Virus record (IMG/VR): IMGVR_UViG_3300020162_001876
Coordinates: 46,999-110,998 of that record
Reading direction: 5' to 3' (one strand)
From: a virus
DNA: 64,000 nt
This document shows positions 11,532 through 64,000 of this stretch, in pieces; position 1 is the first letter of the stretch; every line of letters begins with the position of its first letter. The position numbers were made by a program, and so were the translations under genes. The notes under the pieces were generated by a model. That model saw only the letters and a list, made by a program, of their open reading frames with translations. It did no database searches and was not told the origin of the DNA.

Positions 11532-12790
11532 TGAGTTTACTAGATTCAGCTTCGTTAATTTTAACACCAAACGCTTACTCATCTTCAAAAATATATAGTA
11601 TAATTCCATCTAACGGGAATGGTGATGCAGTATTTCAAAGAAATAGTCAAGCTATAGTAACTAATTCATCAAATTTGCTAACTTTACAACCTAGCACACT
11701 ACCTAGAATACAATATCCTAACACAGGATCAGGTTGCCCTAGTTTCTTATTTGAATATGTCAAAACCCAACAAGTAACATATAGTACTACACCGTACTCT
11801 AGTTCTACCTTCTGGAATCAAGGTTCAGGGTCAACATCACAAGTATCAACTATAAATTCACCCGAAGGTATAGCCAATGCTTCTGAAATAATAGCATCAG
11901 GTTCAGGGGAGCATTACCTAAGATCACATACATTAGGGGCAGCAACTTCAGGATCTATGTATACTGTATCAGCATACGTAAAACAAAAAGAATATGAGTT
12001 TGTTCAATTAAGAACTGCAAATGCAATAACATCCGTGAGTACTTTTGACTTTACTACTAAAACTATAACTGCTGGAAATAACGCTGTAAGTGCGAGTTTT
12101 GAGGAACTTCCCAACGGTTGGTATAGAATATGGCACCGAACAACCCCAATTACATCAGGGTCATTCCGTGTTGGTATACACTTATTAAGTGGATCTTCTA
12201 CAACTACTAATTTTACAGCGCCTGAAGGTAATACTGATGGAGTGTATTTTTACGGACCTCAACTAGAGCTAGGAAATTTAACAAGTTACATACCTACTAC
12301 AAGTAGCGCAACTGCTACAAGAGTTGGCGAACCCCTAACAATATCTAATTTATATACAAATGATATAATAACCAACCAAGGAGGTACATGGTATGTAGAA
12401 TTGGATAATACTCAAACTCCCATAGTAAGAGATGCAGCTTTTGGAATAAGGTTAGATACAACATCAAGTCTGGGTAACCCAGCAACTAATTTTAGAATAT
12501 CACCTCAAACTAATGGGAAAATGAGTATAATATCAGGTTCTACTGCTGTTTCAAATAATCTAGGAACTACTGATACTCTTAAAATTGCAATGAAATGGAA
12601 TGGTACTAACTTAGTAAGTTTTTTTAACAATAATCAATCAGCATCAGTTGCATTTACCGCAACAAATATGGAATATTTACACATAGGTGGTTCTAATGGG
12701 CCTGGTGTTCCAATGTATCTAAAGAAATTATATATATTTCCAAAACCATTAACTGACGATGAATGTAGATCTTTAATACAATTACAATAA
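11531..12790 (+). CDS. head spike/fibre protein with carbohydrate-binding-like beta domains
   Basis: LLDSASLILTPN start, NGWYRI and YFYGPQLE motifs; paralog of ORF 20014. Confidence 0.65.
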   Translation: MSLLDSASLILTPNAYSSSKIYSIIPSNGNGDAVFQRNSQAIVTNSSNLLTLQPSTLPRIQYPNTGSGCPSFLFEYVKTQQVTYSTTPYSSSTFWNQGSGSTSQVSTINSPEGIANASEIIASGSGEHYLRSHTLGAATSGSMYTVSAYVKQKEYEFVQLRTANAITSVSTFDFTTKTITAGNNAVSASFEELPNGWYRIWHRTTPITSGSFRVGIHLLSGSSTTTNFTAPEGNTDGVYFYGPQLELGNLTSYIPTTSSATATRVGEPLTISNLYTNDIITNQGGTWYVELDNTQTPIVRDAAFGIRLDTTSSLGNPATNFRISPQTNGKMSIISGSTAVSNNLGTTDTLKIAMKWNGTNLVSFFNNNQSASVAFTATNMEYLHIGGSNGPGVPMYLKKLYIFPKPLTDDECRSLIQLQ

Positions 12791-12791
12791 T

Positions 12792-13082
12792 ATGCATATT
12801 TATAAATTAAAATACCAGGACAAAACAAAAGCTACACAAGATTTTGTTAAAAAAGGAATATACTTAGAAACATCTGAAGGGATACAGTGGAGTGATTTTA
12901 TATTAGCTATAGTTGATATAGGATTAATTGTAGATATAGATGGCACTTACGATTCTAATGATAATATAATTACACCACCTACTTTTATTCCTGGATATCA
13001 TTATGATATAATGAGTACATTGGAAATAGATTTTGGAGATAATGAAATTTTTCCAAACAATCCTAAACATGGATTTCTATAA
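12792..13082 (+). CDS. fibre-associated small protein, paralog of ORF 21942
   Basis: KLKY..., GYHYDIMS, NNPKH shared with ORF 21942. Confidence 0.65.
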   Translation: MHIYKLKYQDKTKATQDFVKKGIYLETSEGIQWSDFILAIVDIGLIVDIDGTYDSNDNIITPPTFIPGYHYDIMSTLEIDFGDNEIFPNNPKHGFL

Positions 13083-13087
13083 AATGC

Positions 13088-13112
13088 AAAGAGGACATAA
13101 GTCCTCTTTTTT
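13088..13112 (+). terminator. intrinsic terminator
   Basis: AAAGAGGAC-ataa-GTCCTCTTT plus T run. Confidence 0.75.
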
Positions 13113-13161
13113 ATTCAACATATTTTGTCTATATTTATAATAAACAAATAAACGTTTCACT

Positions 13162-13848
13162 ATGGCATCCAACCGTCACACTGATGAGGTTTTCACACAA
13201 AAAAGAAAACCAAAAAATCCAATTAAGTTCCAACTCCAACTTAATGAAGAACAAAAATTAGCAAAAGCACTTATTATAGAAAATCCAGTAGTCGTTTTGA
13301 AAGGAATGGCAGGATCAGGAAAAACTTTAGTAGCAGTACAAGCTGCGCTAGATATGCTGTTTAGTAGAGAAGTAGAGAAAATTATTATAACAAGACCTAC
13401 AGTAGCTAAAGAAGAATTAGGTTTTTTACCAGGGGATATTAAAGAAAAGATGGATCCGTGGTTAGCACCAATATATCACAACTTATACATGCTATACGGT
13501 AAGGATAAAGTTGATAAAGAATTAGAACAAGGTAATATTGAAATTGTACCATTTGCATTTATGAGAGGTAGAACATTTGTAAACTCTTTTGTAATAGTGG
13601 ATGAGGCGCAAAACGTTACTCAAGATCAAATGGAAACTGTTTTAGGAAGACTTGGTAAAGGATCTAAAATGGTAATATGCGGGGATTTAGCTCAAATAGA
13701 TTTAAAAGTAAAAAAAGAAACTGGATTTTCTTTCTTAACAAGAGTCGAAGAACAAGTAGCAGGATTTAAAATATTTGCTTTAAAACAAAACCACAGACAT
13801 GAAATTGTATCTCCAATATTAAAAGTATACCAAGACTTTAGAGATTAG
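13162..13848 (+). CDS. phoH: PhoH-like ATPase
   Basis: GMAGSGKT, LGFLPGDIKEKMDPW, FMRGRTF, DEAQN, GDLAQID. Confidence 0.95.
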   Translation: MASNRHTDEVFTQKRKPKNPIKFQLQLNEEQKLAKALIIENPVVVLKGMAGSGKTLVAVQAALDMLFSREVEKIIITRPTVAKEELGFLPGDIKEKMDPWLAPIYHNLYMLYGKDKVDKELEQGNIEIVPFAFMRGRTFVNSFVIVDEAQNVTQDQMETVLGRLGKGSKMVICGDLAQIDLKVKKETGFSFLTRVEEQVAGFKIFALKQNHRHEIVSPILKVYQDFRD

Positions 13849-13872
13849 AATATTTATATTAAATAATTTAAT

Positions 13873-15039
13873 ATGGCTAATTCACAAGTTTGGACAGGAA
13901 CTGCTACTTTTATTCAAGGCGCAGCTACTCCATTTGGATTTTATGATAATGACTACCAATTTCAGATAGATGCTGTAAAAGTAGCAAAATTTTGTGCTCA
14001 ACGTTTAGGATATCCTTCAATGGATATTGAAATGGATAGTGGTTCATTCTTTGCTTGTTTTGAAGAAGCTGTAACAACATATGGCAATGAACTTTATTTA
14101 TATCAAATTAGAAATAATTTTATATCTTTAGAAGCTAATCCAAATCAAACTGTTTTAAACAACATTGTAATCCAACCTTCATTAGGAAATTTAATTAGAA
14201 TAGCGTCTGATTATGGTAGTGAAGCGGGAGTAGGAGGACATACAAATTACTACTCAGGCTCATTGGATATGACAGCAGGTCAGCAAGATTATGACTTAAC
14301 CGCTTGGGCTTCATCTTCAGGAGTAATATCAGGAAATGATTCAATTGAAATAAAAAATATTTTTTATGAAAATGCACCTGCTATTGTAAGATATTTTGAC
14401 CCTTATGCGGGAACCGGATACGGTTCACAACAATTATTAGACGCTTTTGGATTTGGTAACCAATCCCCAGCTATTAACTTTATGTTAATGCCTCTTAACT
14501 ATGATCTTGCAACAATTCAAGCGATTGAATTAAATGATCAAATAAGAAGATCAGCATTTTCATTTAATATTGTAAATAATAAATTAAAAATATTTCCTAT
14601 CCCTACTCATGATAAAAAACTATATTTTGAATATATCAAAGTATCAGAAAGAGACAGTGTTATACCAACTAGTGGCCCTGGATCTGGAGATAATTTAATT
14701 ACTGATATTTCAAATGTCCCTTATGAAAACCCAACTTATTCTAATATAAACGCTCCAGGTAGATATTGGATATTTGAATATACCCTAGCATTAGCAGCTG
14801 AAACTCTAGCATTTATTAGAGGTAAATATACTCAAGTACCTATACCAGGCGCAGAAGTAACGTTAAATCAGGCAGATTTATTAGGAAAAGCTAAAGATCT
14901 ACAACTGGCGTTAATTGAAAAATTACGTTTAGATTTAGACGAAGCTTCACGTAAGATGCAATTAGAAAGAAAAAAAGCTGAAAATGATGCTATGCAATCT
15001 ACTTTACAGCAAATACCAATGAATATTTTTATAGGATAA
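13873..15039 (+). CDS. neck/head-tail adaptor protein (gp13-like)
   Basis: RLGYPSMDIE, RGKYTQVPIPGAEVTLN, C-terminal PMNIFIG; position. Confidence 0.75.
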   Translation: MANSQVWTGTATFIQGAATPFGFYDNDYQFQIDAVKVAKFCAQRLGYPSMDIEMDSGSFFACFEEAVTTYGNELYLYQIRNNFISLEANPNQTVLNNIVIQPSLGNLIRIASDYGSEAGVGGHTNYYSGSLDMTAGQQDYDLTAWASSSGVISGNDSIEIKNIFYENAPAIVRYFDPYAGTGYGSQQLLDAFGFGNQSPAINFMLMPLNYDLATIQAIELNDQIRRSAFSFNIVNNKLKIFPIPTHDKKLYFEYIKVSERDSVIPTSGPGSGDNLITDISNVPYENPTYSNINAPGRYWIFEYTLALAAETLAFIRGKYTQVPIPGAEVTLNQADLLGKAKDLQLALIEKLRLDLDEASRKMQLERKKAENDAMQSTLQQIPMNIFIG

Positions 15040-53843: not shown

Positions 53844-54026
53844 ATGAAAAAAGTATTTTTAGTATTAGCATTAGTAGCAACAGTTTTAGTATCTTGTAAC
53901 AAAGTAAACACAGCTGAAACATCAACAGTAGATTCAACAGCAGTAGTAGTTGATACAGTACAAGTTGATTCAACAGTAGTTAGCGATGATGAAGCGAGAG
54001 ATTATTTAAAAGATACTGTAAAGTAA
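53844..54026 (+). CDS. small lipoprotein
   Basis: MKKVFLVLALVATVLVS-C lipobox, DST/DTV-rich tail. Confidence 0.75.
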   Translation: MKKVFLVLALVATVLVSCNKVNTAETSTVDSTAVVVDTVQVDSTVVSDDEARDYLKDTVK

Positions 54027-54182
54027 TTACCAACGCTCGCTGTTAATTGAGAAGTAGAGTGTATTAATTTCCGAACAAGGGTTTATAGTAGGAAGAGCTC
54101 ACTCATTGCACTCAATCAGAAACCCTGCTCAAAGTAATAGGTACAAATTCCTATTATTCCCTGAAAGACCAAGGTTGGTAAT
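54026..54182 (+). ncRNA. putative structured RNA with possible pseudoknot
   Basis: Closing stem ATTACCAAC/GTTGGTAAT; crossing helices 54057-63/54107-13 and 54078-84/54120-26. Confidence 0.5.
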
Positions 54183-54189
54183 AAAAAAG

Positions 54190-54276
54190 AGTCGATTGGT
54201 GTAAGTGGGAATAAATACCACATTAGAGTAACATCGAGGCTGCCTCGGGATGAGGGTTCGAATCCCTCATCGACTC
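54190..54276 (+). ncRNA. tRNA-like RNA with 3-nt anticodon loop and D-loop insertion
   Basis: Acceptor AGTCGAT/ATCGACT, T arm GAGGG-TTCGAAT-CCCTC, arm CGAGG-ctg-CCTCG. Confidence 0.6.
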
Positions 54277-54317
54277 CAAATTAAACTACCGTTCTTTGAA
54301 ATAAACTAAATATAATT

Positions 54318-54629
54318 ATGGAACAAATTTTAGCATTTGTTTTAGGTGTTAGTGCAGTTGCCTTTGTATGGGTAGTTGTGGTAGCGTTTAAGACAGCAAG
54401 CAAAGTAAAGGGATTTGAAAAACAATTCCAATCTATATACACATCTTTAATTAACAGAGATGAATTAGTAAATCGTAGAATAGACGAAGAAATCAACAGA
54501 GTAGATCTAATCTACAGCGAATGTAACAGACATACAGACTCCAGAGTAGATAAATTAGAAGCAAAAATCTTATCAGTTAATAAGGATGGTTGCAAACCTG
54601 TTAAGAAAAAAAAATTAATAAAAGGATAA
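54318..54629 (+). CDS. N-terminal TM coiled-coil protein, flanked by 12-bp inverted repeat
   Basis: Hydrophobic N-terminus; IR at 54285-96 and 54639-50. Confidence 0.65.
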   Translation: MEQILAFVLGVSAVAFVWVVVVAFKTASKVKGFEKQFQSIYTSLINRDELVNRRIDEEINRVDLIYSECNRHTDSRVDKLEAKILSVNKDGCKPVKKKKLIKG

Positions 54630-54656
54630 ATTAATCCGAAGAACGGTAGTAAAATA

Positions 54657-54688
54657 TTTGGCTTCCCAAAAAGAAATTATTATATTAA
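54657..54688 (+). promoter_or_regulatory. early-type promoter TTTGG-N19-TATATTAA
   Basis: Consensus and spacing match. Confidence 0.7.
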
Positions 54689-54762
54689 GTTATATTAAAA
54701 AAAGAAAAAAATAATTCGAGGTTTTTATCTCTATTATATATTTATAATCACATAAAATTAAA

Positions 54763-54909
54763 ATGACAACAATTCAAAACATACATCAAGATTTAACTAC
54801 AATAATGAGTAGAGCACTTAATACGTGGTCGCAGCTGTTATGTGGGGATGTCATTTTAGGCTTTAGCGCGTATAATAACGAACCGAAACAAGGTGGGATC
54901 GGAGTATGA
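54763..54909 (+). CDS. 48 aa putative leader peptide upstream of tRNA array, not in ORF track
   Basis: MTTIQNIHQDLTTIMSRALNTWSQLLCGDVILGFSAYNNEPKQGGIGV; A-rich start context, ATATTTAT at 54738. Confidence 0.6.
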   Translation: MTTIQNIHQDLTTIMSRALNTWSQLLCGDVILGFSAYNNEPKQGGIGV

Positions 54910-54939
54910 TATAATTAAGTAAACATATAAACTTAAATC

Positions 54940-54978
54940 AAGACTCGGATCAAAATAAAAGATTCGAGTCTTTTTTTT
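54940..54978 (+). terminator. intrinsic terminator / putative attenuator
   Basis: AAGACTCGGATC-aaaataaaa-GATTCGAGTCTT plus T8; 5' arm can alternatively pair with 54897-54905. Confidence 0.8.
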
Positions 54979-54986
54979 CACTTAGG

Positions 54987-55018
54987 TTTGGCTTTTGGAA
55001 ATAAGTTTCGTATATTAT
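54987..55018 (+). promoter_or_regulatory. early-type promoter for tRNA array
   Basis: tttgg-N19-tatattat. Confidence 0.7.
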
Positions 55019-55068
55019 AGCATAATAAGAAAATAAAGAAAAAGAAAGTAAAAAAGATTTAAAATAAG

Positions 55069-55140
55069 TTTGGCTCTCGAAAAAGAGTTTCGTATATTAA
55101 ATCATAATAAAAAATAAAGAGTTCATTGACATATTGGATA
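55069..55140 (+). promoter_or_regulatory. early-type promoter plus boxA-like element
   Basis: tttgg-N19-tatattaa then GTTCATTGACATATTGGATA; near-duplicated at 58634-58698. Confidence 0.7.
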
Positions 55141-55149
55141 AAGTAAAAA

Positions 55150-55234
55150 GGAGGTGTGGACAGTTGGTTGTTAAGCGGTCTTGAAAATCGTCGCCCGTGC
55201 ATTCGGGTTGCAGGTTCGAATCCTGTCGCCTCCG
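55150..55234 (+). tRNA. tRNA-Ser(TGA)
   Basis: Cloverleaf with long variable arm, loop CT-TGA-AA. Confidence 0.85.
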
Positions 55235-55240
55235 CAATAT

Positions 55241-55312
55241 TGGCTCATAGTGTAACGGTTAGCACAAAACACTTTGACTGTTTTAGTCCAAGTTCGAATC
55301 TTGGTGAGCCAA
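55241..55312 (+). tRNA. tRNA-Gln(TTG)
   Basis: AAACA-CT-TTG-AC-TGTTT. Confidence 0.9.
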
Positions 55313-55321
55313 CAACAATTT

Positions 55322-55392
55322 CTAGTAGCGAAGCCCGGTTTCATGCCTCACTTGGACTGAGGAGTACGCAGGTTCGAATCCTGCCTATTAGA
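55322..55392 (+). tRNA. tRNA-Pro(TGG), atypical D arm
   Basis: CCTCA-CT-TGG-AC-TGAGG, canonical T arm. Confidence 0.75.
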
Positions 55393-55398
55393 CGAAAG

Positions 55399-55454
55399 GA
55401 GACTGTTACTAATTTATTGGACCTCATAGTGGGGGGAATCGTAGAATTAGATTT
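55399..55454 (+). repeat. inter-tRNA repeat element copy 1
   Basis: GAGACTGTTACTAATT...CGTAGAATTAGATTT. Confidence 0.8.
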
Positions 55455-55455
55455 T

Positions 55456-55528
55456 GCCTTCGAAGCTCATGTGGACGGGCACTCCGCTTTTAACGGAGGG
55501 GTAGATGGTTCGAGGCCATCCGGGGGTA
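55456..55528 (+). tRNA. tRNA-Lys(TTT)
   Basis: CTCCG-CT-TTT-AA-CGGAG. Confidence 0.85.
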
Positions 55529-55534
55529 CGAGAA

Positions 55535-55596
55535 GAGACTGTTACTAATTCATAGAAGACCACGCGAGTAAGTCCTCGAAGCGTAGAATTAGATTT
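55535..55596 (+). repeat. inter-tRNA repeat element copy 2
   Basis: Same 16-nt and 15-nt flanks as copy 1, different core. Confidence 0.8.
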
Positions 55597-55667
55597 GCCT
55601 CGTTGGCGTAATGGTAGCGTATTTGTTTTACATGCAAATGGCAGTGGTTCGATTCCACTACGAGGTA
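55597..55667 (+). tRNA. tRNA-Val(TAC)
   Basis: TTTGT-TT-TAC-AT-GCAAA. Confidence 0.88.
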
Positions 55668-55768
55668 CAAAAATGGGGATGATAGGCGATATCTAGCGGC
55701 AATTGGGTATCTGGGTTCATAGCCATACTATGAAATGTTAGTTTTGCCGAATTAATAGAGTAGTAGTT

Positions 55769-55838
55769 TCGTTAATAGTGTAGCGGAAACACGCCAGCTG
55801 TGAAAGCTGGAGGGTAGGGTTCGAGACCCGTTAATGAG
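55769..55838 (+). ncRNA. aberrant tRNA-like RNA (loop TGTGAAA, weak T stem)
   Basis: Acceptor TCGTTAA/TTAATGA, D arm GTGT-agcggaa-ACAC, arm CCAGC/GCTGG. Confidence 0.5.
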
Positions 55839-55845
55839 CAAAATT

Positions 55846-55927
55846 GGGTAGCAAAAGTCGTTCGGATACGGCAGCGAGACTGTAAATCTCGTCCTTATAG
55901 GGAGTGGTTCGAGTCCACTGTTACCCA
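55846..55927 (+). tRNA. tRNA-Tyr(GTA)
   Basis: CGAGA-CT-GTA-AA-TCTCG, variable arm. Confidence 0.85.
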
Positions 55928-55940
55928 CTGTATTAACTTG

Positions 55941-56013
55941 GGGCCTTTTGTATAGCTGGTGCGTACGCTAGTCTGAAGAACTAGAGGAACAGGTTCGATT
56001 CCTGTAGGGCCCA
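55941..56013 (+). tRNA. tRNA-Phe(GAA)
   Basis: CTAGT-CT-GAA-GA-ACTAG. Confidence 0.88.
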
Positions 56014-56092
56014 CGAAGAAGGAGAATGTGGGTTCGAATCCCACCTGGTCTAGCTAAAACTGGGTCGGTAGTGTAACGGTAACATAACTTCG
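56014..56092 (+). ncRNA. circularly permuted tRNA-like RNA (T arm, looped acceptor, D arm)
   Basis: GTGGG-TTCGAAT-CCCAC, then CTGGTCTAG-ctaaaa-CTGGGTCGG, then TA-GTGT-aacggta-ACAT, closed by CGAAG/CTTCG. Confidence 0.65.
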
Positions 56093-56097
56093 CATTA

Positions 56098-56169
56098 GGA
56101 TCCTTAGCTCAGAGGCAGAGCGGTTGTTTGTTAGGCAACGGGTCGAGATTTCGAAATTCTCAGGATCCT
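56098..56169 (+). tRNA. tRNA-Asn(GTT) copy 1, atypical T loop
   Basis: GTTGT-TT-GTT-AG-GCAAC; acceptor GGATCCT/AGGATCC. Confidence 0.75.
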
Positions 56170-56175
56170 CAAAAT

Positions 56176-56247
56176 TGGCTTGTCGTATAAAGGTTATTAC
56201 GGATGACTGTTAATCATCTTATGAAGGTTCGATTCCTTCCAGGCCAG
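56176..56247 (+). tRNA. tRNA-Asn(GTT) copy 2
   Basis: GATGA-CT-GTT-AA-TCATC. Confidence 0.9.
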
Positions 56248-56254
56248 CAAAATT

Positions 56255-56326
56255 GCTCCTATAGTAGAATGGTTAGCACACATCTCTGATAAGGATGAAA
56301 TGGAGGTTCAATTCCTTCTAGGAGTA
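56255..56326 (+). tRNA. tRNA-Ile(GAT)
   Basis: CATCT-CT-GAT-AA-GGATG. Confidence 0.88.
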
Positions 56327-56332
56327 CAAAAT

Positions 56333-56417
56333 GGAAAGTAAATCACACAGGGTGTGAGACCGCTTGCTAAGCGAATCATGCGTTAATTCGCATGGGGATC
56401 GAGACCTCTGCTTTCCT
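56333..56417 (+). tRNA. tRNA-Ser(GCT)
   Basis: Loop TT-GCT-AA, long variable arm CATGCG/CGCATG. Confidence 0.75.
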
Positions 56418-56548
56418 CAAAAAAACCTCTTCACCGTCCTCACAACGCATCTAAGGAATGTAGGAGATGAAAGTACGAACGGGGCCCTGTGGTAAGACAC
56501 TTTAAAATCAGATAGTACAATGATAGAGTAAGGGGTTCTCTATCAACT

Positions 56549-56618
56549 GCCGACTTGATCAGGTGATCGAAAATATCTCATAAGTATTTTCAGAGTGGAT
56601 CGTTACCACTAGTCGGTA
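56549..56618 (+). tRNA. tRNA-Met(CAT), elongator-like
   Basis: AATAT-CT-CAT-AA-GTATT; acceptor GCCGACT/AGTCGGT. Confidence 0.75.
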
Positions 56619-56621
56619 CAA

Positions 56622-56672
56622 AAATCAACGAGACGAAGGAGGTCACGTAGGTTCGAATCCTACCGTTGATTT
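56622..56672 (+). ncRNA. minihelix-like tRNA mimic (acceptor + T arm only)
   Basis: AAATCAACG-16 nt-GTAGG-TTCGAAT-CCTAC-CGTTGATTT. Confidence 0.55.
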
Positions 56673-56679
56673 AGTATAT

Positions 56680-56750
56680 GGTGGTTCTAGCTTATCGGTA
56701 AAGCGCTTGACTGTGAATCAGGAGAACAGGGTTCGATCCCCGGAATCACC
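56680..56750 (+). tRNA. tRNA-His(GTG)
   Basis: CTTGA-CT-GTG-AA-TCAGG; G-1 and C73 present. Confidence 0.9.
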
Positions 56751-56764
56751 CAAAATTAATTATT

Positions 56765-56965
56765 ATGGCAAGAGAATACAGTGAAAGTGAAAAAATGCTA
56801 CTTGAAGCAGTAGTTGGATTGTTTATAATACATCCTAACCCTCAATTAAAAGGTAAAGAAAAAAGAGTAATGAAAATTGCTTATGAGGTAATGGATAAAA
56901 TGTTAGAAAAAAATGCCCCTGTGGTGAAAATGGTAAACACACTATCTTTAAACGGTAGCGCTTAG
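56765..56965 (+). CDS. hypothetical protein whose 3' end runs into tRNA-Leu
   Basis: Good A-rich start; stop falls inside the tRNA variable arm. Confidence 0.45.
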   Translation: MAREYSESEKMLLEAVVGLFIIHPNPQLKGKEKRVMKIAYEVMDKMLEKNAPVVKMVNTLSLNGSA

Positions 56966-56994
56966 GCTTGCTGGTTCGACTCCAGTCAGGGGTA
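56915..56994 (+). tRNA. tRNA-Leu(TAA)
   Basis: CTATC-TT-TAA-AC-GGTAG, variable arm. Confidence 0.88.
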
Positions 56995-56999
56995 CAAAA

Positions 57000-57102
57000 T
57001 TGGAGTGGTGGAATTGGTAAACATCTTCCCTATCCGGCAGAGATAGGTACACTAGGCTGAGGATGCAATAAACTCAGTGCAGGTTCAAATCCTGTCTCCA
57101 AC
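57000..57102 (+). ncRNA. expanded tRNA-like RNA with two internal hairpins
   Basis: TTGGAG/CTCCAA acceptor, Leu-like D arm, CCTATC-cggcaga-GATAGG, CTGAG/CTCAG, T arm GCAGG-TTCAAAT-CCTGT. Confidence 0.55.
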
Positions 57103-57108
57103 TTAACT

Positions 57109-57181
57109 GGTCTTATAGCATAAATGGAAATGCACTTGAATACGAATCAAGAGATTGTAGGTTCGACTCCTACTAAGACCT
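57109..57181 (+). tRNA. tRNA-Arg(ACG)
   Basis: CTTGA-AT-ACG-AA-TCAAG. Confidence 0.85.
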
Positions 57182-57186
57182 CAACT

Positions 57187-57257
57187 GCCCTTATAGTTCA
57201 AAGGAAGAACATATCTCTTCTAAAGATAGAATCCTGGTTCGAGTCCAGGTAGGGGTT
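57187..57257 (+). tRNA. tRNA-Arg(TCT)
   Basis: TATCT-CT-TCT-AA-AGATA. Confidence 0.88.
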
Positions 57258-57331
57258 CAAAAAAATCGTCTTGGATCATTTGATATGATTTAATGGGTAA
57301 CACCTGGTAGGTTAAGCGATATCCTATAAAT

Positions 57332-57400
57332 GCGTCACAGGCTAAGGTAGCCAAATGGATTCCAACCCCATAGGACAGAGTTCGATTCTTTGGTGGCGCG
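57332..57400 (+). tRNA. tRNA-Trp(CCA)
   Basis: ATGGA-TT-CCA-AC-CCCAT; acceptor GCGTCAC/GTGGCGC. Confidence 0.8.
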
Positions 57401-57404
57401 CAAT

Positions 57405-57477
57405 TGGGGTAAAAGCACATAAGGATGTGCAGGCGGTAGACGCCGCAAGGCCTGGGTTCGAATCCCAAGTACTCCAC
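57405..57477 (+). ncRNA. tRNA-like RNA with 4-5 nt anticodon loop
   Basis: TGGGGTA/TACTCCA, D arm GCAC/GTGC, GGCG-gtaga-CGCC, T loop TTCGAAT. Confidence 0.55.
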
Positions 57478-57543
57478 AAAAGTATTAATTATGAAAAAGA
57501 AATTCGATGCTCATTAGGTTTATTAACCTAAAATTTGAGCAAA

Positions 57544-57723
57544 ATGAGAATCAAAAACTATACTAACAAAGAGTATAAAAAAGAAAAAAGAAAAGAGTAT
57601 AAGGAATGGGATACTTGGTTTGAAGATTATTGGAGTAAAAAGTCAAAAATATGGGCTTTTAAATACCGAGAATATAGAACCTGGAAGTATAACAGAAAAA
57701 CACAATATAAACCTTTAAAATAA
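57544..57723 (+). CDS. small basic/aromatic protein ending RTWKYNRKTQYK
   Basis: ATG at 57544 follows a hairpin; K/W/Y-rich. Confidence 0.55.
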   Translation: MRIKNYTNKEYKKEKRKEYKEWDTWFEDYWSKKSKIWAFKYREYRTWKYNRKTQYKPLK

Positions 57724-57729
57724 GTTATC

Positions 57730-58236
57730 ATGAGTAAACATCAGAAAACACTAGTAGTGGATTCAAGCTTTATCGCAAGAAGTATTATACCTGCAGAAAG
57801 AGCATTTGTGATTTCTTATAAAGGTAATGCAGAGGTAATAGCAGAACATCCAGAAACATTTGGATTAGTAAATCCAAATCTAGAGATTTACAAACCTTCT
57901 ATTATTAGAGTATTCACTTATGTGAAACAACACATACATAAAGTTGCTCTGACAAGAGATAACATCTACAAAAGAGATAACTATGAATGTGTATATTGTG
58001 GAAGTTCAAATCAAAGAACACTAACATTGGATCACGTGGTTCCTCAATCAAAAGGAGGAAAAGATAGCTGGGACAATTTAGTAACAGCATGCAGAACATG
58101 TAATCAGGAAAAAGCTGATTTAACATTAGAGGAATATGGAAAAGAAATTCCAGAACCAAAACGTCCACATTACCTGATGCTATTAAGACAAGTTCAGGAC
58201 ATACCAAGAGAATGGGAAACATTTTTATTCTTTTAG
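57730..58236 (+). CDS. HNH endonuclease (McrA-like)
   Basis: RDNYECVYCG, TLDHVVPQSKGG, WDNLVTACRTCNQEK. Confidence 0.92.
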   Translation: MSKHQKTLVVDSSFIARSIIPAERAFVISYKGNAEVIAEHPETFGLVNPNLEIYKPSIIRVFTYVKQHIHKVALTRDNIYKRDNYECVYCGSSNQRTLTLDHVVPQSKGGKDSWDNLVTACRTCNQEKADLTLEEYGKEIPEPKRPHYLMLLRQVQDIPREWETFLFF

Positions 58237-58245
58237 TAAAAAAAG

Positions 58246-58277
58246 TTTGGAAATTAGAAATAAAGTTCGTATATTTA
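58246..58277 (+). promoter_or_regulatory. early-type promoter TTTGG-N19-TATATTTA
   Basis: Consensus and spacing match. Confidence 0.7.
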
Positions 58278-58295
58278 AGTATAAGAAATTAAGAT

Positions 58296-58469
58296 ATGAA
58301 AGATTTTTTAAATTGGTTAGTAGGACTTCCAAAATGTAAAAAAGGAGGAAGATGTAATTCAGATTCAGAAATGGAATATACATTAGCCTCAAAAAGATTC
58401 TTTGAAAAGACAAATAGATGGTGCTGTTCTAAATGTAATAAAGAAGTAACAGACTATTTTAAAATTTAA
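58296..58469 (+). CDS. 57 aa Cys-rich protein (possible Zn ribbon), not in ORF track
   Basis: MKDFLNWLVGLPKCKKGGRC...WCCSKCNKEVTDYFKI directly behind a promoter. Confidence 0.55.
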   Translation: MKDFLNWLVGLPKCKKGGRCNSDSEMEYTLASKRFFEKTNRWCCSKCNKEVTDYFKI

Positions 58470-58543
58470 AATCACCTACTACAAAACAGCACGTGAAATT
58501 AATACTGACTTGTACTGTCTGGAAGGTCAGGCTAGGTGAATTT

Positions 58544-58613
58544 GGGCAGGATGGTCTTGGAGGCCGGCAGGATTGCAAACTCTGCAGAGTAAGTTCGATT
58601 CTTACCTTGCCCT
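58544..58613 (+). tRNA. tRNA-Cys(GCA)
   Basis: Loop TT-GCA-AA, U73 discriminator. Confidence 0.8.
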
Positions 58614-58633
58614 CAAAAAAAGATTAAAAAAGG

Positions 58634-58698
58634 TTTGGCTATCGGAAATTAATTTCGTATATTAAATCATAATAAAAAGATCATTGAAATATTGGATA
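58634..58698 (+). promoter_or_regulatory. second tRNA-block promoter plus boxA-like element
   Basis: tttgg-N19-tatattaaatcataataaaaa then GATCATTGAAATATTGGATA. Confidence 0.7.
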
Positions 58699-58707
58699 AG
58701 ATAAATT

Positions 58708-58780
58708 GCCCGAGTGGTGGAACGGCAGACACGCTTGACTTAGGATCAAGATATTGCGGGTTCGAATCCCGCCTTGGGTA
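58708..58780 (+). tRNA. tRNA-Leu(TAG) with short variable loop
   Basis: CTTGA-CT-TAG-GA-TCAAG; only ATATT between anticodon and T arms. Confidence 0.85.
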
Positions 58781-58789
58781 CAAAATTTA

Positions 58790-58970
58790 AAATCACTTGC
58801 TTGAAGATAAACAAATGATAAGAGGTAGTCTATTACAAACGTACAAAATAGATTATCATTAAACTGTACTAGCAGTTGTGTTTGTTGTAGAGATAGACCT
58901 GGAAAAACAGGATAAAGAAGAGAATCTGGAAACAGTAAATCTATTCCACTAGAATTTGGACAAGTGATTT
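58790..58970 (+). ncRNA. putative ~180 nt multi-hairpin RNA
   Basis: Perfect 10-bp closing stem AAATCACTTG/CAAGTGATTT, several internal hairpins. Confidence 0.5.
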
Positions 58971-58980
58971 AAAACTAAAA

Positions 58981-59047
58981 TTAGAGTTAGCTTATAGTAA
59001 AGCAGCAGGGGCTAACCTGCAGAACGGATACGAGAACCGGCTCTAAT
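58981..59047 (+). ncRNA. tRNA-like RNA with 6-nt loop GGCTAA and degenerate T arm
   Basis: TTAGAGT/GCTCTAA, GCTT/AAGC D stem, GCAGG/CCTGC. Confidence 0.5.
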
Positions 59048-59052
59048 TATTT

Positions 59053-59124
59053 GCTTCTGAAACATAAATGGTAATGTACTTGATTTGTACTCAAGAAAAC
59101 GGGGTTCGATTCCTCGCAGAAGCT
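59053..59124 (+). tRNA. tRNA-Thr(TGT)
   Basis: CTTGA-TT-TGT-AC-TCAAG. Confidence 0.85.
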
Positions 59125-59132
59125 CAATAATT

Positions 59133-59206
59133 GCATCATTCGCCTAGTAGGTATGGCACCACACTTCCAATGTGGAATAAGGCCGGTTCGAGACCGGCAT
59201 GATGCT
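59133..59206 (+). tRNA. tRNA-Gly(TCC)
   Basis: CCACA-CT-TCC-AA-TGTGG, U73. Confidence 0.88.
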
Positions 59207-59257
59207 CAAGGGTGTGTGGGAACCCAAGAATATGTGATGAACATATACCCACAATCT

Positions 59258-59329
59258 GCTGCGTTAGTGAAGAGGTTAACACGTATCACTTTCTATGATA
59301 AGGCACGGGTTCGAATCCCGTACGCAGTA
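59258..59329 (+). tRNA. tRNA-Glu(TTC)
   Basis: TATCA-CT-TTC-TA-TGATA. Confidence 0.85.
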
Positions 59330-59335
59330 CAATTT

Positions 59336-59407
59336 GGGGCTATAGTATAACGGCTATTACAATGGTTTTGCAAATCATAAATTGGAGTTCGATTCTCCAT
59401 AGCTCCA
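59336..59407 (+). tRNA. tRNA-Ala(TGC)
   Basis: ATGGT-TT-TGC-AA-ATCAT, G3:U70 pair. Confidence 0.9.
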
Positions 59408-59463
59408 CAATAGCTTAATCGACTTTTGACAGATTTGACAACTTGGAACAGACAAGTAATTTT

Positions 59464-59535
59464 GGTCTATTGGTCCAGGGGAATGGATGCCTGCCTGTCA
59501 CGTAGGAGACCCGGGTTCGAATCCCGGATAGACCG
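59464..59535 (+). tRNA. tRNA-Asp(GTC)
   Basis: CCTGC-CT-GTC-AC-GTAGG, G73. Confidence 0.9.
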
Positions 59536-59540
59536 CATAT

Positions 59541-59613
59541 CGCGAGGGGGAGGTAAGGTATCTCATGACTCTCATAAGGTCACTTAAATCGGTTCAATTC
59601 CGGTCCTACGCTA
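59541..59613 (+). tRNA. tRNA-Met(CAT), initiator-like, irregular acceptor
   Basis: Starts CGCG, loop CT-CAT-AA. Confidence 0.65.
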
Positions 59614-59619
59614 CAAATT

Positions 59620-59691
59620 GGTCTCGTAGCTCAGAGGTAGAGCAAGTTCCTCATAAGAACGAGGTCGGGATATCATAATTCCCCGGGACCA
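59620..59691 (+). tRNA. tRNA(CAT), Ile2- or Met-type
   Basis: GTTC-CT-CAT-AA-GAAC; acceptor GGTCTCG/CGGGACC; atypical T loop. Confidence 0.7.
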
Positions 59692-59757
59692 CAAAATTTA
59701 TCCAATATGAGAGCAATTCAATCGTCTCCAATGTAGTTTTAGCTATTAGCTAAAATT

Positions 59758-59991
59758 ATGACTCAGAAATTGAGAATTTGGAGAGTAGTCCCAACCAGCA
59801 TGACTGGTGTTCAGGCTCCCACGTTTTTTGTTGAAACAACACAGAACGGACGAGAAGAAGCAGAAAAATCTGCAAACCTACAAGCAAGACAAAAATCTAG
59901 CTTGGGTAAGTTTAACAATTGGTATTTTGATTTAACAAGAATGAATGTCAGAGTTGACAAACATGGGAGGTATATCAAACATCACCAATAA
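59758..59991 (+). CDS. hypothetical protein
   Basis: 77 aa, start preceded by hairpin. Confidence 0.5.
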   Translation: MTQKLRIWRVVPTSMTGVQAPTFFVETTQNGREEAEKSANLQARQKSSLGKFNNWYFDLTRMNVRVDKHGRYIKHHQ

Positions 59992-60012
59992 TAAAAAGTA
60001 TTTGAAGAAAGA

Positions 60013-60044
60013 TTTGGATATCTGGATCTTTCTTCTTATATTTA
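60013..60044 (+). promoter_or_regulatory. early-type promoter TTTGG-N19-TATATTTA
   Basis: Consensus and spacing match. Confidence 0.7.
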
Positions 60045-60061
60045 AGTATAAAATAAAAGTT

Positions 60062-60502
60062 ATGGAAAAAGAATTTGTACCTTACGAACAAGCATTAGAT
60101 TTAAAAGAATTAGGGTTTAATAGAAGAACATTCTCGCAGTATAATACACACCAGGGTAATGAGTGGATATTAACATTTGATTTGTCGGGAGAAGGTCAGT
60201 ATCCTAATAACTCTCCAGCATGTATAGCACCAACATTTTCACAAGCATTTAGATGGTTGTTAATTTTAGTAAATAAAAATAAACATTTTAGTAACAAATG
60301 GACAATTAGCTACAATGAGGATTATTACTCTTTATTTTTAGGCGGTTGTAATATGGGAGTATTTAAAGCAGAACTTGAATGTTTAAAGAAACTAATTGAA
60401 ATAGTAAAACAATCACAAAAAATATATGATGAGAGTCCACATAGTAAAACATTCAGAACACCTGCAAGTGATTACAACTCTAGAGGTGGTTATCGTAAAT
60501 AA
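60062..60502 (+). CDS. hypothetical phage protein (MEKEFVPYEQALDLKELGF...APTFSQAFRW)
   Basis: Start moved to the ATG downstream of the promoter at 60013. Confidence 0.7.
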   Translation: MEKEFVPYEQALDLKELGFNRRTFSQYNTHQGNEWILTFDLSGEGQYPNNSPACIAPTFSQAFRWLLILVNKNKHFSNKWTISYNEDYYSLFLGGCNMGVFKAELECLKKLIEIVKQSQKIYDESPHSKTFRTPASDYNSRGGYRK

Positions 60503-61839: not shown

Positions 61840-61871
61840 CTTGCTTACGCAGGTCTTTTTTCGTATATTTA
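61840..61871 (+). promoter_or_regulatory. early-type promoter (CTTGC-N19-TATATTTA variant)
   Basis: Spacing conserved. Confidence 0.6.
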
Positions 61872-61888
61872 GGTATAAGAAAGAAGTT

Positions 61889-62539
61889 ATGAAAATAGTA
61901 TTAGAAAAAGGACAACAATTGTTCTTCACATCAGACACACATTACTCACACTCAAACATTTGTAGTGCTACTACAAACTGGTCTGTGAACGATGGATATG
62001 CTCGTCAATTTGATTCATTACAAGATATGAACCAAAGACTGGTGGATAACATCAACAACATGGTTGGTGAAGATGATATTCTAATTCACTTAGGAGATTG
62101 GTCATTTGGAGGATTTGATAAGATTGAAGAATTTAGAAGTCAAATCAACTGTAAAAACATCCACTTGGTACTTGGAAATCATGATCACCACATTGAAAGA
62201 AACAAAGAAGGCGTACAAAGACTATTCTCTTCAGTACAAAACTACTTGAGATTAGAAGTAAAAAGACCAATCAACAAAGCAACAACTGAAAAGTTTACTT
62301 TCATTTGTATGCACTATCCAATTGCGTCATGGCACGATATGAACCAAGGAGTAATTCACTTGCATGGCCACGTTCATTTACCTGAACATTTAAGAATAGC
62401 AGAGGGTAAAGCAATGGATGTTGGAGTAGATGGAAACAAATTGGAACCTATATCATTAGATGAAATAGTAGAGATAATGAAAGATCGTCCAATTAAAAAA
62501 TTAGCCTTACCAAAGGATCATCACGAAAAAAGAATTTAA
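61889..62539 (+). CDS. calcineurin-like metallophosphoesterase
   Basis: SDTHY, LGDW, GNHD, MHYP, HGHVH, DVGVD; start reassigned downstream of promoter. Confidence 0.9.
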   Translation: MKIVLEKGQQLFFTSDTHYSHSNICSATTNWSVNDGYARQFDSLQDMNQRLVDNINNMVGEDDILIHLGDWSFGGFDKIEEFRSQINCKNIHLVLGNHDHHIERNKEGVQRLFSSVQNYLRLEVKRPINKATTEKFTFICMHYPIASWHDMNQGVIHLHGHVHLPEHLRIAEGKAMDVGVDGNKLEPISLDEIVEIMKDRPIKKLALPKDHHEKRI

Positions 62540-62540
62540 T

Positions 62541-62735
62541 ATGAAACTGCAGAAACTTTTTATAAAAGGAAGAAAATATAAAACTGATAAGACTATAGTA
62601 CTATGTACAAAGACAACCTGTAATTATTCTACAGAACATTTCCAAGGAGTGGTATTAGAATCAAAAGAGTACGCAACTGGAAGATTTAGTAAAACTTGGA
62701 TTATGGGAAGATTTGAAGAAGTAATTGAAGAATAA
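62541..62735 (+). CDS. hypothetical protein
   Basis: 64 aa ORF in operon. Confidence 0.5.
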   Translation: MKLQKLFIKGRKYKTDKTIVLCTKTTCNYSTEHFQGVVLESKEYATGRFSKTWIMGRFEEVIEE

Positions 62736-62738
62736 AAT

Positions 62739-63122
62739 ATGAAAGAGTTATTTTTATTAAGAGGATTACCAGGAGCAGGTAAATCAACATTAGCGAAATC
62801 ATTAGGTGGTTCGCATATGGAGGCTGATAAGTATTTTATGGATAAGGGTGAATATAAATTTGATCCAAGTAAAACAAGAGATGCTCATGAGTGGTGTCAA
62901 AATGCAGTAAGTGTTTGGATGGCAAACAATACAGAAAAGATTGTAGTATCAAACACATTTACTCAGGAATGGGAAATGGAGTATTACTTTGAATTAGCAA
63001 AAGAATACGGATACAGAGTTTATTCTTTAATTGTAGAAAATAGACATTCAGGAGTTAATTCTCATGGAGTACCAGAAGAAAAATTAGTACAAATGAAAAA
63101 TAGATTCGAGATATCGCTATGA
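62739..63122 (+). CDS. P-loop polynucleotide-kinase-like protein
   Basis: RGLPGAGKST, VSNTFT, HGVP. Confidence 0.85.
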   Translation: MKELFLLRGLPGAGKSTLAKSLGGSHMEADKYFMDKGEYKFDPSKTRDAHEWCQNAVSVWMANNTEKIVVSNTFTQEWEMEYYFELAKEYGYRVYSLIVENRHSGVNSHGVPEEKLVQMKNRFEISL

Positions 63123-63697
63123 GAGAAACATTTGAAGATTACTTACAAAGACTAAAAGACAGACGCACAGAAGACGATTACAAGTACACTGATGAAGATT
63201 TTAAAAACTATATTCACTATATTTTCAATTGTTATGAAACTAACTTAAGTGTTTATAAATGTCTTGAATTTATGTATTTTGCAGAAAGAGATATAGATGA
63301 TACTTTATTCAATAGAGAACCTATTGAAGAATTAGGAATACTAGAAGTACCAATGCCTATACAGAAAGAAGAAAAAAGGTATAGTGAGGAAGAAGTAGAT
63401 TCCATTATAGCTGAAACTTGGAACAGTTGCGAAGATAATGAGGGGGATGAAACGTTTACACAAGCAAGAGGTAGGATTTTAAATCAATATAAACATAAAC
63501 AAGAGTCTACAGCTGATTACATTGACAGGCATATTATACAAGCGATGGTAGAATTACATAGACAAGAACAACACGACTTCTTACCAGGATTTATAAATCA
63601 ATTTGATCCTAAAGAAGGAGAAATAAATGGAGAAGAATGGACAGCAGTTCAGTTTTTAAAATGGTTAGAATTAAATAAATTTAAAATTATAAAATAA
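63119..63697 (+). CDS. hypothetical mosaic protein
   Basis: 192 aa, YSEEEV module. Confidence 0.5.
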   Translation: MRETFEDYLQRLKDRRTEDDYKYTDEDFKNYIHYIFNCYETNLSVYKCLEFMYFAERDIDDTLFNREPIEELGILEVPMPIQKEEKRYSEEEVDSIIAETWNSCEDNEGDETFTQARGRILNQYKHKQESTADYIDRHIIQAMVELHRQEQHDFLPGFINQFDPKEGEINGEEWTAVQFLKWLELNKFKIIK

Positions 63698-64000
63698 ATG
63701 GAAAATAACAACAGCTGCTGTTTTGTAGCAAAAATAAATGAAGTAAAAGCAATTGAAGGTGCTGATAACATCGAACAAGCAGTTATCGGTGGGTGGAATA
63801 CTATTGTAAAAAAAGGAGCACATCAAGTAAATGATTTAGTAGTATGTGCAACTACTGATGCAGTTATTCCATCAGAAATTTCTGATAGTATTGGTGTAAC
63901 CAATTACCTAAGAAAAGGAAACAGAGTAAGAACTGTAAAACTAAGAGGAGTATATTCAGAATGTTTAATCATCTCTCTAGACCTATTACCACAAATGAAA
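63698..64000 (+). CDS. RNA ligase (DRB0094-like) N-terminal domain, 3'-truncated
   Basis: IEGADNIE, GWNTIVKKG, RVRTVKLRGVYSECL; catalytic domain lies beyond window. Confidence 0.75.
   Translation, partial: MENNNSCCFVAKINEVKAIEGADNIEQAVIGGWNTIVKKGAHQVNDLVVCATTDAVIPSEISDSIGVTNYLRKGNRVRTVKLRGVYSECLIISLDLLPQMK

Follow-up and report, generated by a model that had tools for sequence, protein, structure and literature searches.

The 64,000-nucleotide (nt) stretch of viral DNA analysed here (positions 46,999 to 110,998 of the IMG/VR record IMGVR_UViG_3300020162_001876), hereafter called the window and to whose full length all positions refer unless stated otherwise, carries an array of transfer RNA (tRNA) genes in which two spacers, one between tRNA-Pro and tRNA-Lys and the other between tRNA-Lys and tRNA-Val, are copies of the same small element. 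This element, about 55-85 nt long, forms a discrete unit that a tRNA array may have or lack; it was found in a group of aquatic phages, some of which infect Flavobacteriaceae. It is new as a sequence family, and structured small RNAs within the tRNA arrays of viruses are a kind already known. The explanation that we tentatively favour is that both spacers represent a structured RNA module not described before, which would be excised when the flanking tRNAs are processed and would bind a conserved partner.

The tRNA genes, placed by ARAGORN, form a one-strand array of at least 24 genes at 55150-59612. Within the window GAGACTGTTACTAATT occurs exactly twice (55399-55414 and 55535-55550), as does CGTAGAATTAGATTT (55440-55454 and 55582-55596), and the two blocks are separated by 25 nt in the first copy and 31 nt in the second, with unrelated bases between them. 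Each copy fills one complete inter-tRNA spacer, of 62 nt for Pro/Lys and 67 nt for Lys/Val, and the distance from one to the other is 136 nt; in the whole virus record to which the window belongs (110,998 bases), the two-block pattern has no further copy. An earlier note, made from the letters of the window, had described a two-block module occurring twice and filling these spacers, and according to the exact counts and ARAGORN its description is correct in every detail. A single repeated 16-mer in 64 kilobases (kb) is unremarkable, but a second colinear 15-mer, likewise present twice in the same context, is beyond chance.

Read from 5' to 3', the element consists of a purine-rich linker, a tail, the 5' strand of a stem (P1), an AUA/RUA internal loop, a G-C pair enclosing a variable apical part, and the 3' strand of P1. 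In the position profile the linker has an A at -2 in 58 of 72 elements and a G at -1 in all 72. The tail GAYYGUUA, which reads ACUGUUA after the G of the linker, is near-invariant and single-stranded. The internal loop sets AUA opposite RUA, with R as A (47 of 88 unique elements), G (39) or U (2), and the stem is followed by an invariant A (72/72) and then by a short A/U-rich link. Both window copies display all the features that define this inter-tRNA hairpin family, namely the GAYYGUUA tail, the CUAAUUY/GAAUUAG stem, the AUA/RUA loop, the G-C pair and a location between tRNAs on the tRNA strand. The covariance model of the element family (R1) matches copy 1 at 55392-55455 (60.0 bits, E 5.6e-10) and copy 2 at 55528-55597 (65.6 bits, E 3.9e-11), two scores to be read with the fact that the seed alignment of the model (A1) includes two rows from locus L018 which are identical to, or one base off, the window copies.

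All the features of this part of the window lie on the plus strand. Upstream of copy 1 stands tRNA-Pro(UGG), placed by ARAGORN at 55319-55393 (36.5 bits with the Rfam tRNA model), and manual pairing of its acceptor stem (UCUAGUA/UAUUAGA) puts its start at 55321 and its discriminator C at 55393. Copy 1 is the entire spacer 55394-55455. Its purine-rich linker (55394-55400) was delimited from the position profile, and its near-invariant single-stranded tail GACUGUUA (55401-55408) from the same profile and the tail variants; pair counts define the P1 5' strand CUAAUUU (55409-55415), whose last U forms a wobble with G, and the P1 3' strand GAAUUAG (55444-55450). Between these strands, the anchored-helix search and the minimum free energy (MFE) fold place the internal loop AUU (55416-55418), G 55419 and C 55440 around the apical part 55420-55439, an apical pairing of CCUC (55422-55425) with GGGG (55433-55436), and the loop GUA (55441-55443). 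In the position profile the invariant A is at 55451, followed by a U-rich link ending at 55455, where the element abuts tRNA-Lys(UUU) (55456-55529, ARAGORN; 39.4 bits with the Rfam tRNA model), the gene lying between both copies. Copy 2 is the entire spacer 55530-55596 and, by the same kinds of evidence, comprises the linker GAGAAGA (55530-55536, also seen in the sequence itself), the tail GACUGUUA (55537-55544), the P1 5' strand CUAAUUC (55545-55551), the loop AUA (55552-55554), G 55555, the apical part 55556-55581, C 55582, the loop GUA (55583-55585), the P1 3' strand GAAUUAG (55586-55592), the invariant A 55593 and a UUU link to tRNA-Val(UAC), its downstream neighbour (55597-55668, ARAGORN; 64.4 bits with the Rfam tRNA model).

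The tail of both copies also equals the first 8 nt of the anticodon arm of the phage's own tRNA-Asn(GUU), that is the 5' end of the stem and the start of the anticodon loop (56205-56218). This identity may be due to chance or may be a mimicry.

The pairing of P1 is supported by nearly all members of the family, with 99.8% of the cells paired in 105 rows and 98.6% in the 69 rows of a scan in which the stem was left free. Changes on both sides (compensatory changes) occur at 5 of the 7 pairs; in the 105 rows the outer C-G pair is replaced by U-A twice, and the inner pair by U-A in 2 rows and by U-G in 10. When the five middle pairs were left free, UAAUU/AAUUA was kept in 58 of 69 unique elements, and the other 11 display three pairs with one both-side change each, a G-U in 2 rows and a mismatch in 8; the degree of P1 pairing of these variants was reached by none of 500 shuffles. 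The pairing of CTAATT with AATTAG claimed in the earlier note is thus present, within a longer helix of 7 base pairs (bp), CUAAUUY/GAAUUAG.

Evidence for a second, apical helix (P2) comes from its length and from covariation. Near the base of the core this helix has a mean of 3.4 bp versus 2.8 in shuffles, and it reaches at least 4 bp in 39 of 80 cores versus 24.5% of shuffles. In a 13-row subfamily, P2 is 98.7% paired versus at most 44% when the strands are slid, and one of its pair positions shows GU, UA, AU and CG. RNAalifold recovers P1 and P2 unaided and suggests in addition that the U of the AUA loop pairs with R (U-A in 7 rows, U-G in 6). In a minimal third copy, in locus L041, the core between the G and the C is reduced to the 6 nt ACUAAA, with the tail, P1 and the loop retained; the apical helix is therefore dispensable. 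Wobbles are found on the sense strand, with the U-G of P1 in 10 rows and a G-U at one P2 pair in 13 of 13 rows, while C-A cells number only 2; the strand that folds is therefore the tRNA-sense strand, more probably in the form of RNA than of single-stranded DNA.

The two blocks together were found in 53 IMG/VR stretches, and looser patterns gave estimates of about 130 (5' half fixed), about 160 (3' half fixed) and about 140 stretches (a third pattern); according to these scans the module is present in well over 100 IMG/VR phage contigs. When the 3' block was left free, CGUAG or CAUAG followed by AAUUAG was still found in 64 of 74 unique strings. Conversely, in the 115 loci from the scan with the 3' half fixed, the 10 nt before AAUU are GACUGUUACU in 76 matches, GAUUGUUACU in 22, GACCGUUACU in 5 and one of three rarer variants differing by 1-2 bases in 4, and 9 matches are unrelated chance matches. 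The covariance model, built from 105 unique rows, gave 109 matches in 1.30 megabases of element-bearing arrays, all of at least 50 bits, with none weaker down to E 0.1. Among prokaryotes, represented by one genome for each of 185,579 species, a single stretch was retrieved, from a contig of a metagenome-assembled genome, and the element therefore belongs to phages. It is carried, unannotated in the records, by two cultured phages: Cellulophaga phage phi4:1, at 87269-87352 of NC_021788 between tRNA-Pro and tRNA-Glu (36.6 bits, with a 40-nt core), and Tenacibaculum phage Gundel_1, at about 74357-74419 of MT732474 between tRNA-Pro and tRNA-Gln (58 bits). The DNA runs containing the window's stretch are labelled as freshwater, lake, aquatic or drinking-water metagenomes.

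The placement of the element was surveyed in 101 distinct contexts, each taken with flanks of at most 10 kb and with tRNAs called by ARAGORN. A tRNA ends 2-9 nt upstream of the tail in 70 of these contexts and starts 3-7 nt downstream of the stem in 67, and all of the 1299 tRNAs are on the strand of the element. One copy is present in 80 loci, two in 9 and three in 1. Some of the missing neighbours are interrupted or odd tRNAs uncalled by ARAGORN, such as the 149-nt tRNA-Leu-like genes of locus L023. Two such genes of about 149 nt flank the element there (1344-1492 and 1554-1702 of that locus); they have normal acceptor, D and T parts with an insertion of about 65 nt, are missed by both ARAGORN and the Rfam gathering threshold, and may be intron-bearing phage tRNAs.

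Of 72 distinct tRNA-Pro(UGG) genes, 36 are directly followed by the element; for every other tRNA type the share is at most 10%, and for all tRNAs together it is 68/996. The element is also optional and is not tied to particular neighbours: the orthologous Pro/Lys junction in locus L009 consists of AAATT only, identical linker plus core units occur beside different tRNAs on both sides, and the cores found at the same junction differ between phages. Absent from an orthologous junction and travelling with its own linker, the element would therefore be small-gene-like rather than a processing requirement. Its conservation is also out of proportion with that of its neighbours. The 34 unique tRNA-Pro genes adjacent to an element have a mean pairwise identity of 58% and 8 invariant columns out of 96; one identical 19-mer is found in 22 of the 33 elements partnered with tRNA-Pro, the others differing by 1-2 bases. 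Conservation of the element thus far exceeds that of the tRNA-Pro beside it; part of this difference follows from retrieval by exact patterns, but the positions left free in each scan are likewise conserved. The reading of the earlier note is borne out in part: more than 100 homologues, helix covariation and an exact fit between tRNAs show a real family, whose scaffold is constant and whose apical part varies.

Under the favoured explanation, the element would be transcribed as part of the single-strand tRNA array, and a small hairpin RNA would be freed by two cuts, one made at the upstream tRNA by ribonuclease (RNase) Z or a different 3' nuclease, the other made at the downstream tRNA by RNase P. 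Because the unit abuts a tRNA 3' end on one side and a tRNA 5' end on the other, ordinary end-processing cuts would release it without any signal of its own. A conserved partner, most likely a phage protein or one belonging to the RNA machinery of the host, would then bind to the surface formed by the invariant tail, the stem and the internal loop, and the apical hairpin would be a tolerated peripheral part, not a guide. The constraint on about 33 nearly fixed nt, including a helix whose sequence is kept beyond pairing, points to a partner that reads sequence. Two known systems resemble this scenario. The tRNA cluster of phage T4 encodes species 1 and 2 (rnaC and rnaD), small stable RNAs of unknown function which are co-transcribed with the tRNAs and trimmed by tRNA-processing enzymes; they are partly tRNA-like and about twice as long as the element, and the likeness is one of description only. 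In Escherichia coli, 3'ETS-leuZ is a host small RNA derived from the spacer or trailer of a tRNA operon, which acts by base pairing as a sponge. It resembles the element in the proposed biogenesis, in which processing of the tRNA ends releases a spacer that then functions as a small RNA, and differs in that the invariant part of the element has no excess of complementary sites in the window: the tail has 10 potential trans targets there with at most 3 mismatches, versus 15 expected.

Several results weigh against this explanation. The sequence of the stem is kept in 58 of the 69 elements, for which pairing alone is insufficient and which a DNA-level reader would also fit. The MFE values of the window copies, -8.2 and -8.4 kcal/mol (z 0.63 and 0.06), show no gain over shuffles, and 72 cores are on average no more stable than shuffles (mean folding z -0.02). 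Retrieval was by exact patterns throughout, so that conservation at the patterned positions is partly by construction. The link with tRNA-Pro(UGG) could reflect a cis role at the 3' end of that tRNA, or simply common descent. No gene is common to all of the 99 loci whose neighbourhood was compared, the commonest (HNH) being present in only 29, and thus no partner can be named. Transcription finds weak support in RNA-library contigs of one study, which bridge tRNA-Gln, the element of a relative and tRNA-Val; the four RNA-library runs hold contigs of relatives only, the parts that they leave uncovered carry no meaning, and such contigs cannot show 5' or 3' ends and may stem from DNA carry-over. 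Structure, strand, placement, optionality and constraint of the element are established, and its release and partner binding are inferred from them; we rank a released small RNA first, a cis signal, favoured by the link with tRNA-Pro, second and a DNA site third, followed by a ribozyme, a guide and a scar.

The window phage is of the myovirus type, with terminase, portal, major head and sheath genes. The array is preceded by a QueC gene and contains, at 57730-58236, a gene for an HNH homing endonuclease of 168 amino acids (aa). At 61841-64000, 2-4 kb downstream of the array, an RNA end-healing and sealing cassette encodes a calcineurin-like phosphoesterase, an AAA_33 polynucleotide-kinase-like ATPase, a 192-aa open reading frame (ORF) of unknown nature and a PHA02142 OB-fold (RNA-ligase type) ORF which runs off the end of the window. 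Genes within 10 kb were clustered for the 99 loci, and the commonest neighbours are homing endonucleases, HNH in 29 loci and GIY-YIG in 26, at variable distances, followed by a cyclic-phosphate-processing receiver domain (14/99), QueC (11/99) and the AAA_33 kinase (11/99). A Pfam scan of the rest of the genome gave no RNase or recombinase candidate. In locus L394, a 578-aa ORF (12629-14362; G000:C1:32629-34362) has a weak, sub-threshold match to Integrator IntS11_C and no relative in the PDB; it may be a beta-CASP-type nuclease.

The explanation ranked second, which we regard as possible and rather improbable, is that the element acts in cis on the tRNA precursor, as a signal for punctuation or processing whose tail and hairpin would be read by an endonuclease of the host or the phage (of the RNase E/G type, RNase P or RNase Z acting on the minihelix-like hairpin, or a phage enzyme). 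It would set the 3' end of the upstream tRNA, above all of tRNA-Pro, or insulate the folding of the neighbouring tRNAs, and the excised piece would have no function of its own. The exact fit to the tRNA ends and the presence of the element after 36 of 72 tRNA-Pro(UGG) genes, versus at most 10% for other types, agree with such a role, as do the phosphoesterase, the polynucleotide-kinase-like ATPase and the RNA-ligase-type OB domain 2-4 kb downstream in the window and the cyclic-phosphate-processing receiver domain found in 14 of the 99 loci; the 7-bp stem followed by an invariant A can moreover be interpreted as resembling an acceptor stem with its discriminator. However, the Pro/Lys junction of locus L009 and half of the tRNA-Pro genes do without the element, the Rfam tRNA model has no match to the spacers at E up to 10, and a mere cleavage site is not expected to hold about 33 nt nearly invariant.

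A reader acting on DNA is unlikely in our opinion. The tRNA arrays are full of free-standing homing endonuclease genes, and the element would then serve there as a site of homing or recombination, or would itself be a small mobile unit, kept by an enzyme binding DNA or single-stranded DNA hairpins or by repeated co-conversion. Integron attC sites, the ends of IS200/IS605 elements and the T4-type PeSL cassette boundaries have inverted arms and a variable centre, are strand-specific and bound small genes that are shuffled. The element is like them in having conserved inverted arms around a variable centre, and differs from them in the invariant tail outside the repeat and in its number of copies, 1-3 per array and not one per tRNA. 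The conservation of the arms in sequence and not in pairing alone, the presence/absence polymorphism at the L009 junction, the occurrence of one linker plus core unit beside different tRNAs, the HNH and GIY-YIG genes within 10 kb of many loci (29 and 26 of 99) and the presence of the element in unrelated phage taxa, Lightbulbvirus and Pachyviridae, are all compatible with this possibility. Against it stand an orientation that is strictly that of the tRNAs (0 of 1299 on the other strand), wobbles tolerated on the sense strand only, compensatory changes that preserve the helices and the asymmetry of the invariant tail. At the L009 junction no target-site duplication was seen, and no endonuclease or recombinase lies at a fixed distance in the 99 loci. 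Pfam scans of the window's genome and of the top 16 neighbour clusters, in which most proteins have no family, revealed no tyrosine recombinase, integrase or HUH transposase.

A new class of small self-cleaving ribozyme, acting like theta ribozymes, is quite improbable. Such an RNA would cut itself where the upstream tRNA ends, or close to that point, and the resulting cyclic phosphate would be dealt with by the end-healing enzymes of the phage. Theta ribozymes are minimal ribozymes of the hepatitis delta virus (HDV) type located next to phage tRNAs (PMC10879173), and they resemble the element in being small (about 55 nt for theta), directly 3' of phage tRNA genes and on the tRNA strand. According to supplement 5 of that publication, the theta layout is P1-J1/2-P2-P3-L3-P3'-P1'-P1.1-L4-J4/2-P2', and two strings are common to theta and the element, CUAA-UUC (J4/2 and the start of the P2 3' strand in theta) and GUAGAA (the P2 5' strand in theta). 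Together with the same site, the position of conserved nucleotides in single-stranded and loop parts and the RNA end-healing and sealing genes near the arrays, these strings could argue for a ribozyme. Their order is nevertheless reversed in the element, where CUAA-UUC precedes GUAGAA and where, unlike in the theta layout as given in that source, they form a hairpin with an unpaired AUA/RUA loop; compared with the same layout, the element has no double pseudoknot, no P1 partner for the linker and no P3, L3 or P1.1.

Further searches gave no ribozyme fold. No complement of the linker (GAGAAGA and the like) that could form an HDV-type P1 was found in the constant parts or the cores. The linker-core duplex energy is -4.02 kcal/mol versus -3.72 for mismatched partners; linker-core pairing has striking single cases (8 bp in locus L168) but no general excess, and was rejected. 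A descriptor of the HDV-like double pseudoknot, run on 38 loci and on window positions 54001-60500, gave 11 AU-rich matches, none of them on the element, and the Rfam HDV-type covariance models have no match on the element at E up to 10. A permuted-HDV reading, based on the strings common with theta, was rejected because no P1 or P3 partners were found. In Rfam 15, searched with both spacers at E up to 10, no family matches, ribozymes included, and the sole overlap is with an unstructured long non-coding RNA model (13.7 bits); 20 further elements revealed no recurring family. The hammerhead core CUGANGA...GAAA with its three-way junction is absent, the element having CUGUUAC and a two-way hairpin, and there is no Rfam hammerhead match. 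The conservation of the stem sequence beyond pairing would also be unusual for ribozyme helices. The misfit to the theta or HDV-like topology that the earlier note had seen by eye is thereby corroborated, by Rfam, by the descriptor and by threading by eye.

The same note had considered a guide-like core, and a guide-type RNA, with a constant handle and a variable core pairing with a nucleic-acid target, as in a mini-array of clustered regularly interspaced short palindromic repeats (CRISPR) or in another viral guide system, is now very improbable. The constant-variable-constant layout and the different cores of different phages at the same junction would suit a guide, but the constant blocks on either side are two different sequences, no effector gene is common to the loci, and the core is a covarying hairpin which can shrink to 6 nt. 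For the one core searched, that of copy 2, the 20-mer occurs in 3 IMG/VR stretches, all of them copies of the element, with no protospacer. A CRISPR repeat or mini-array was rejected on the differing 5' and 3' blocks and on this 20-mer; a CRISPR direct-repeat model gave a sub-threshold match on only 1 of 20 elements (20.5 bits versus a gathering score of 36). The idea of a functionless repeat, left by a local duplication or by chance, is the case that the earlier note had named as its refutation and deserves practically no credence: the presence of both copies in one array, at a distance of 136 nt, would suit it, but well over 100 homologues with different cores in other phages, covarying helices and a conservation much higher than that of the adjoining tRNA speak against it.

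Other candidates were examined and set aside. The spacers contain no tRNA or tRNA-like gene, ARAGORN calling none and the Rfam tRNA model having no match in 55394-55455 and 55530-55596 at E up to 10. An intrinsic terminator does not agree with an AU-rich stem followed by an A and a U- or A-rich run (AAAAUU in many cases) and by a tRNA within 3-7 nt. A type III toxin-antitoxin RNA (ToxI-like) was rejected on the 1-3 copies per locus, separated by tRNAs, with no endoribonuclease toxin gene among the frequent neighbours. For a promoter of the sigma-70 or Bacteroidota type, a -10-like TAGAAT is present, but the distance to the -35-like sequence varies with core length and the start would fall inside the tRNA. 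By eye, none of K-turn, loop E, tetraloop-receptor and bulge-helix-bulge motifs fits.

The array of the window also contains other unusual spacers. The 60-nt tRNA-Met/tRNA-His spacer (56620-56679) looks like a mini-tRNA, with a 6-bp acceptor-like stem (UCAACG/CGUUGA) around a normal T arm (GUAGG-UUCGAAU-CCUAC) and neither D nor anticodon arm. The tRNA-Phe/tRNA-Asn spacer (56015-56097) contains parts of tRNAs: a purine-rich stretch is followed by a T arm, GUGGGUUCGAAUCCCAC, and then by a tRNA 5' part, GGGUCGGUAGUGUAACGGUAAC. Three matches of the tRNA model are uncalled by ARAGORN: 56999-57103 (105 nt, an interrupted or long-armed tRNA-like sequence, 30 bits), 57332-57400 (sub-threshold, 27.2 bits) and 59620-59691 (good, 45.3 bits). 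The 50-nt spacer after tRNA-Gly (59208-59257) is a different inter-tRNA element, in which a long hairpin is seen by eye (UGUGGG...AUAUGU-GAUGA-ACAUAU...CCCACA). A block of about 45 nt, UUUGGCU...UUUCGUAUAUUA.A.CAUAAUAA, occurs three times in the window (54985-55035, 55060-55149 and 58630-58707) and may be a phage promoter; after two of its copies comes UCAUUGAMAUAUUGGAUAA, immediately before the tRNA with which a segment of the array begins.

No published description of the hairpin element was found, the full-text literature matches to its motif strings being unrelated primers only. These strings have no match in the 9 searchable supplement files of the theta-ribozyme publication (PMC10879173), nor in the searchable supplements of a survey of 10,006 candidate viral RNAs (PMC10690425), three files excepted, and the element may consequently be listed in those three files without a name. 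In the literature since 2023, theta is the only new class of tRNA-linked ribozyme that was found. A bolder proposal, which we consider doubtful, assigns the element to a system of Flavobacteria-type phages that is still undescribed, RNA-protein or RNA-only, in which it would be the RNA half: either a self-cleaving or self-processing RNA that would mature tRNA-Pro, or a decoy or inhibitor RNA made in bulk, whose anticodon-loop-like tail GACUGUUA would trap a host defence nuclease targeting tRNAs.

Phage tRNA arrays are now viewed as tools of codon supply and counter-defence. To our knowledge, the RNA between the tRNAs of phages is almost unexplored, and theta ribozymes are the only class of small element described there. 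The maintenance of about 33 nearly fixed nt while the adjoining tRNA-Pro drifted to 58% identity suggests a demanding reader, and because two phages carrying the element are in culture together with their hosts, phi4:1 on Cellulophaga baltica and Gundel_1 on Tenacibaculum, the ends of the RNA, its partners and its phenotype are directly testable. Annotators would gain a model for a recurrent and so far unannotated feature, and whether small RNA, processing signal or ribozyme, the element would be a new part of phage RNA biology in Bacteroidota.

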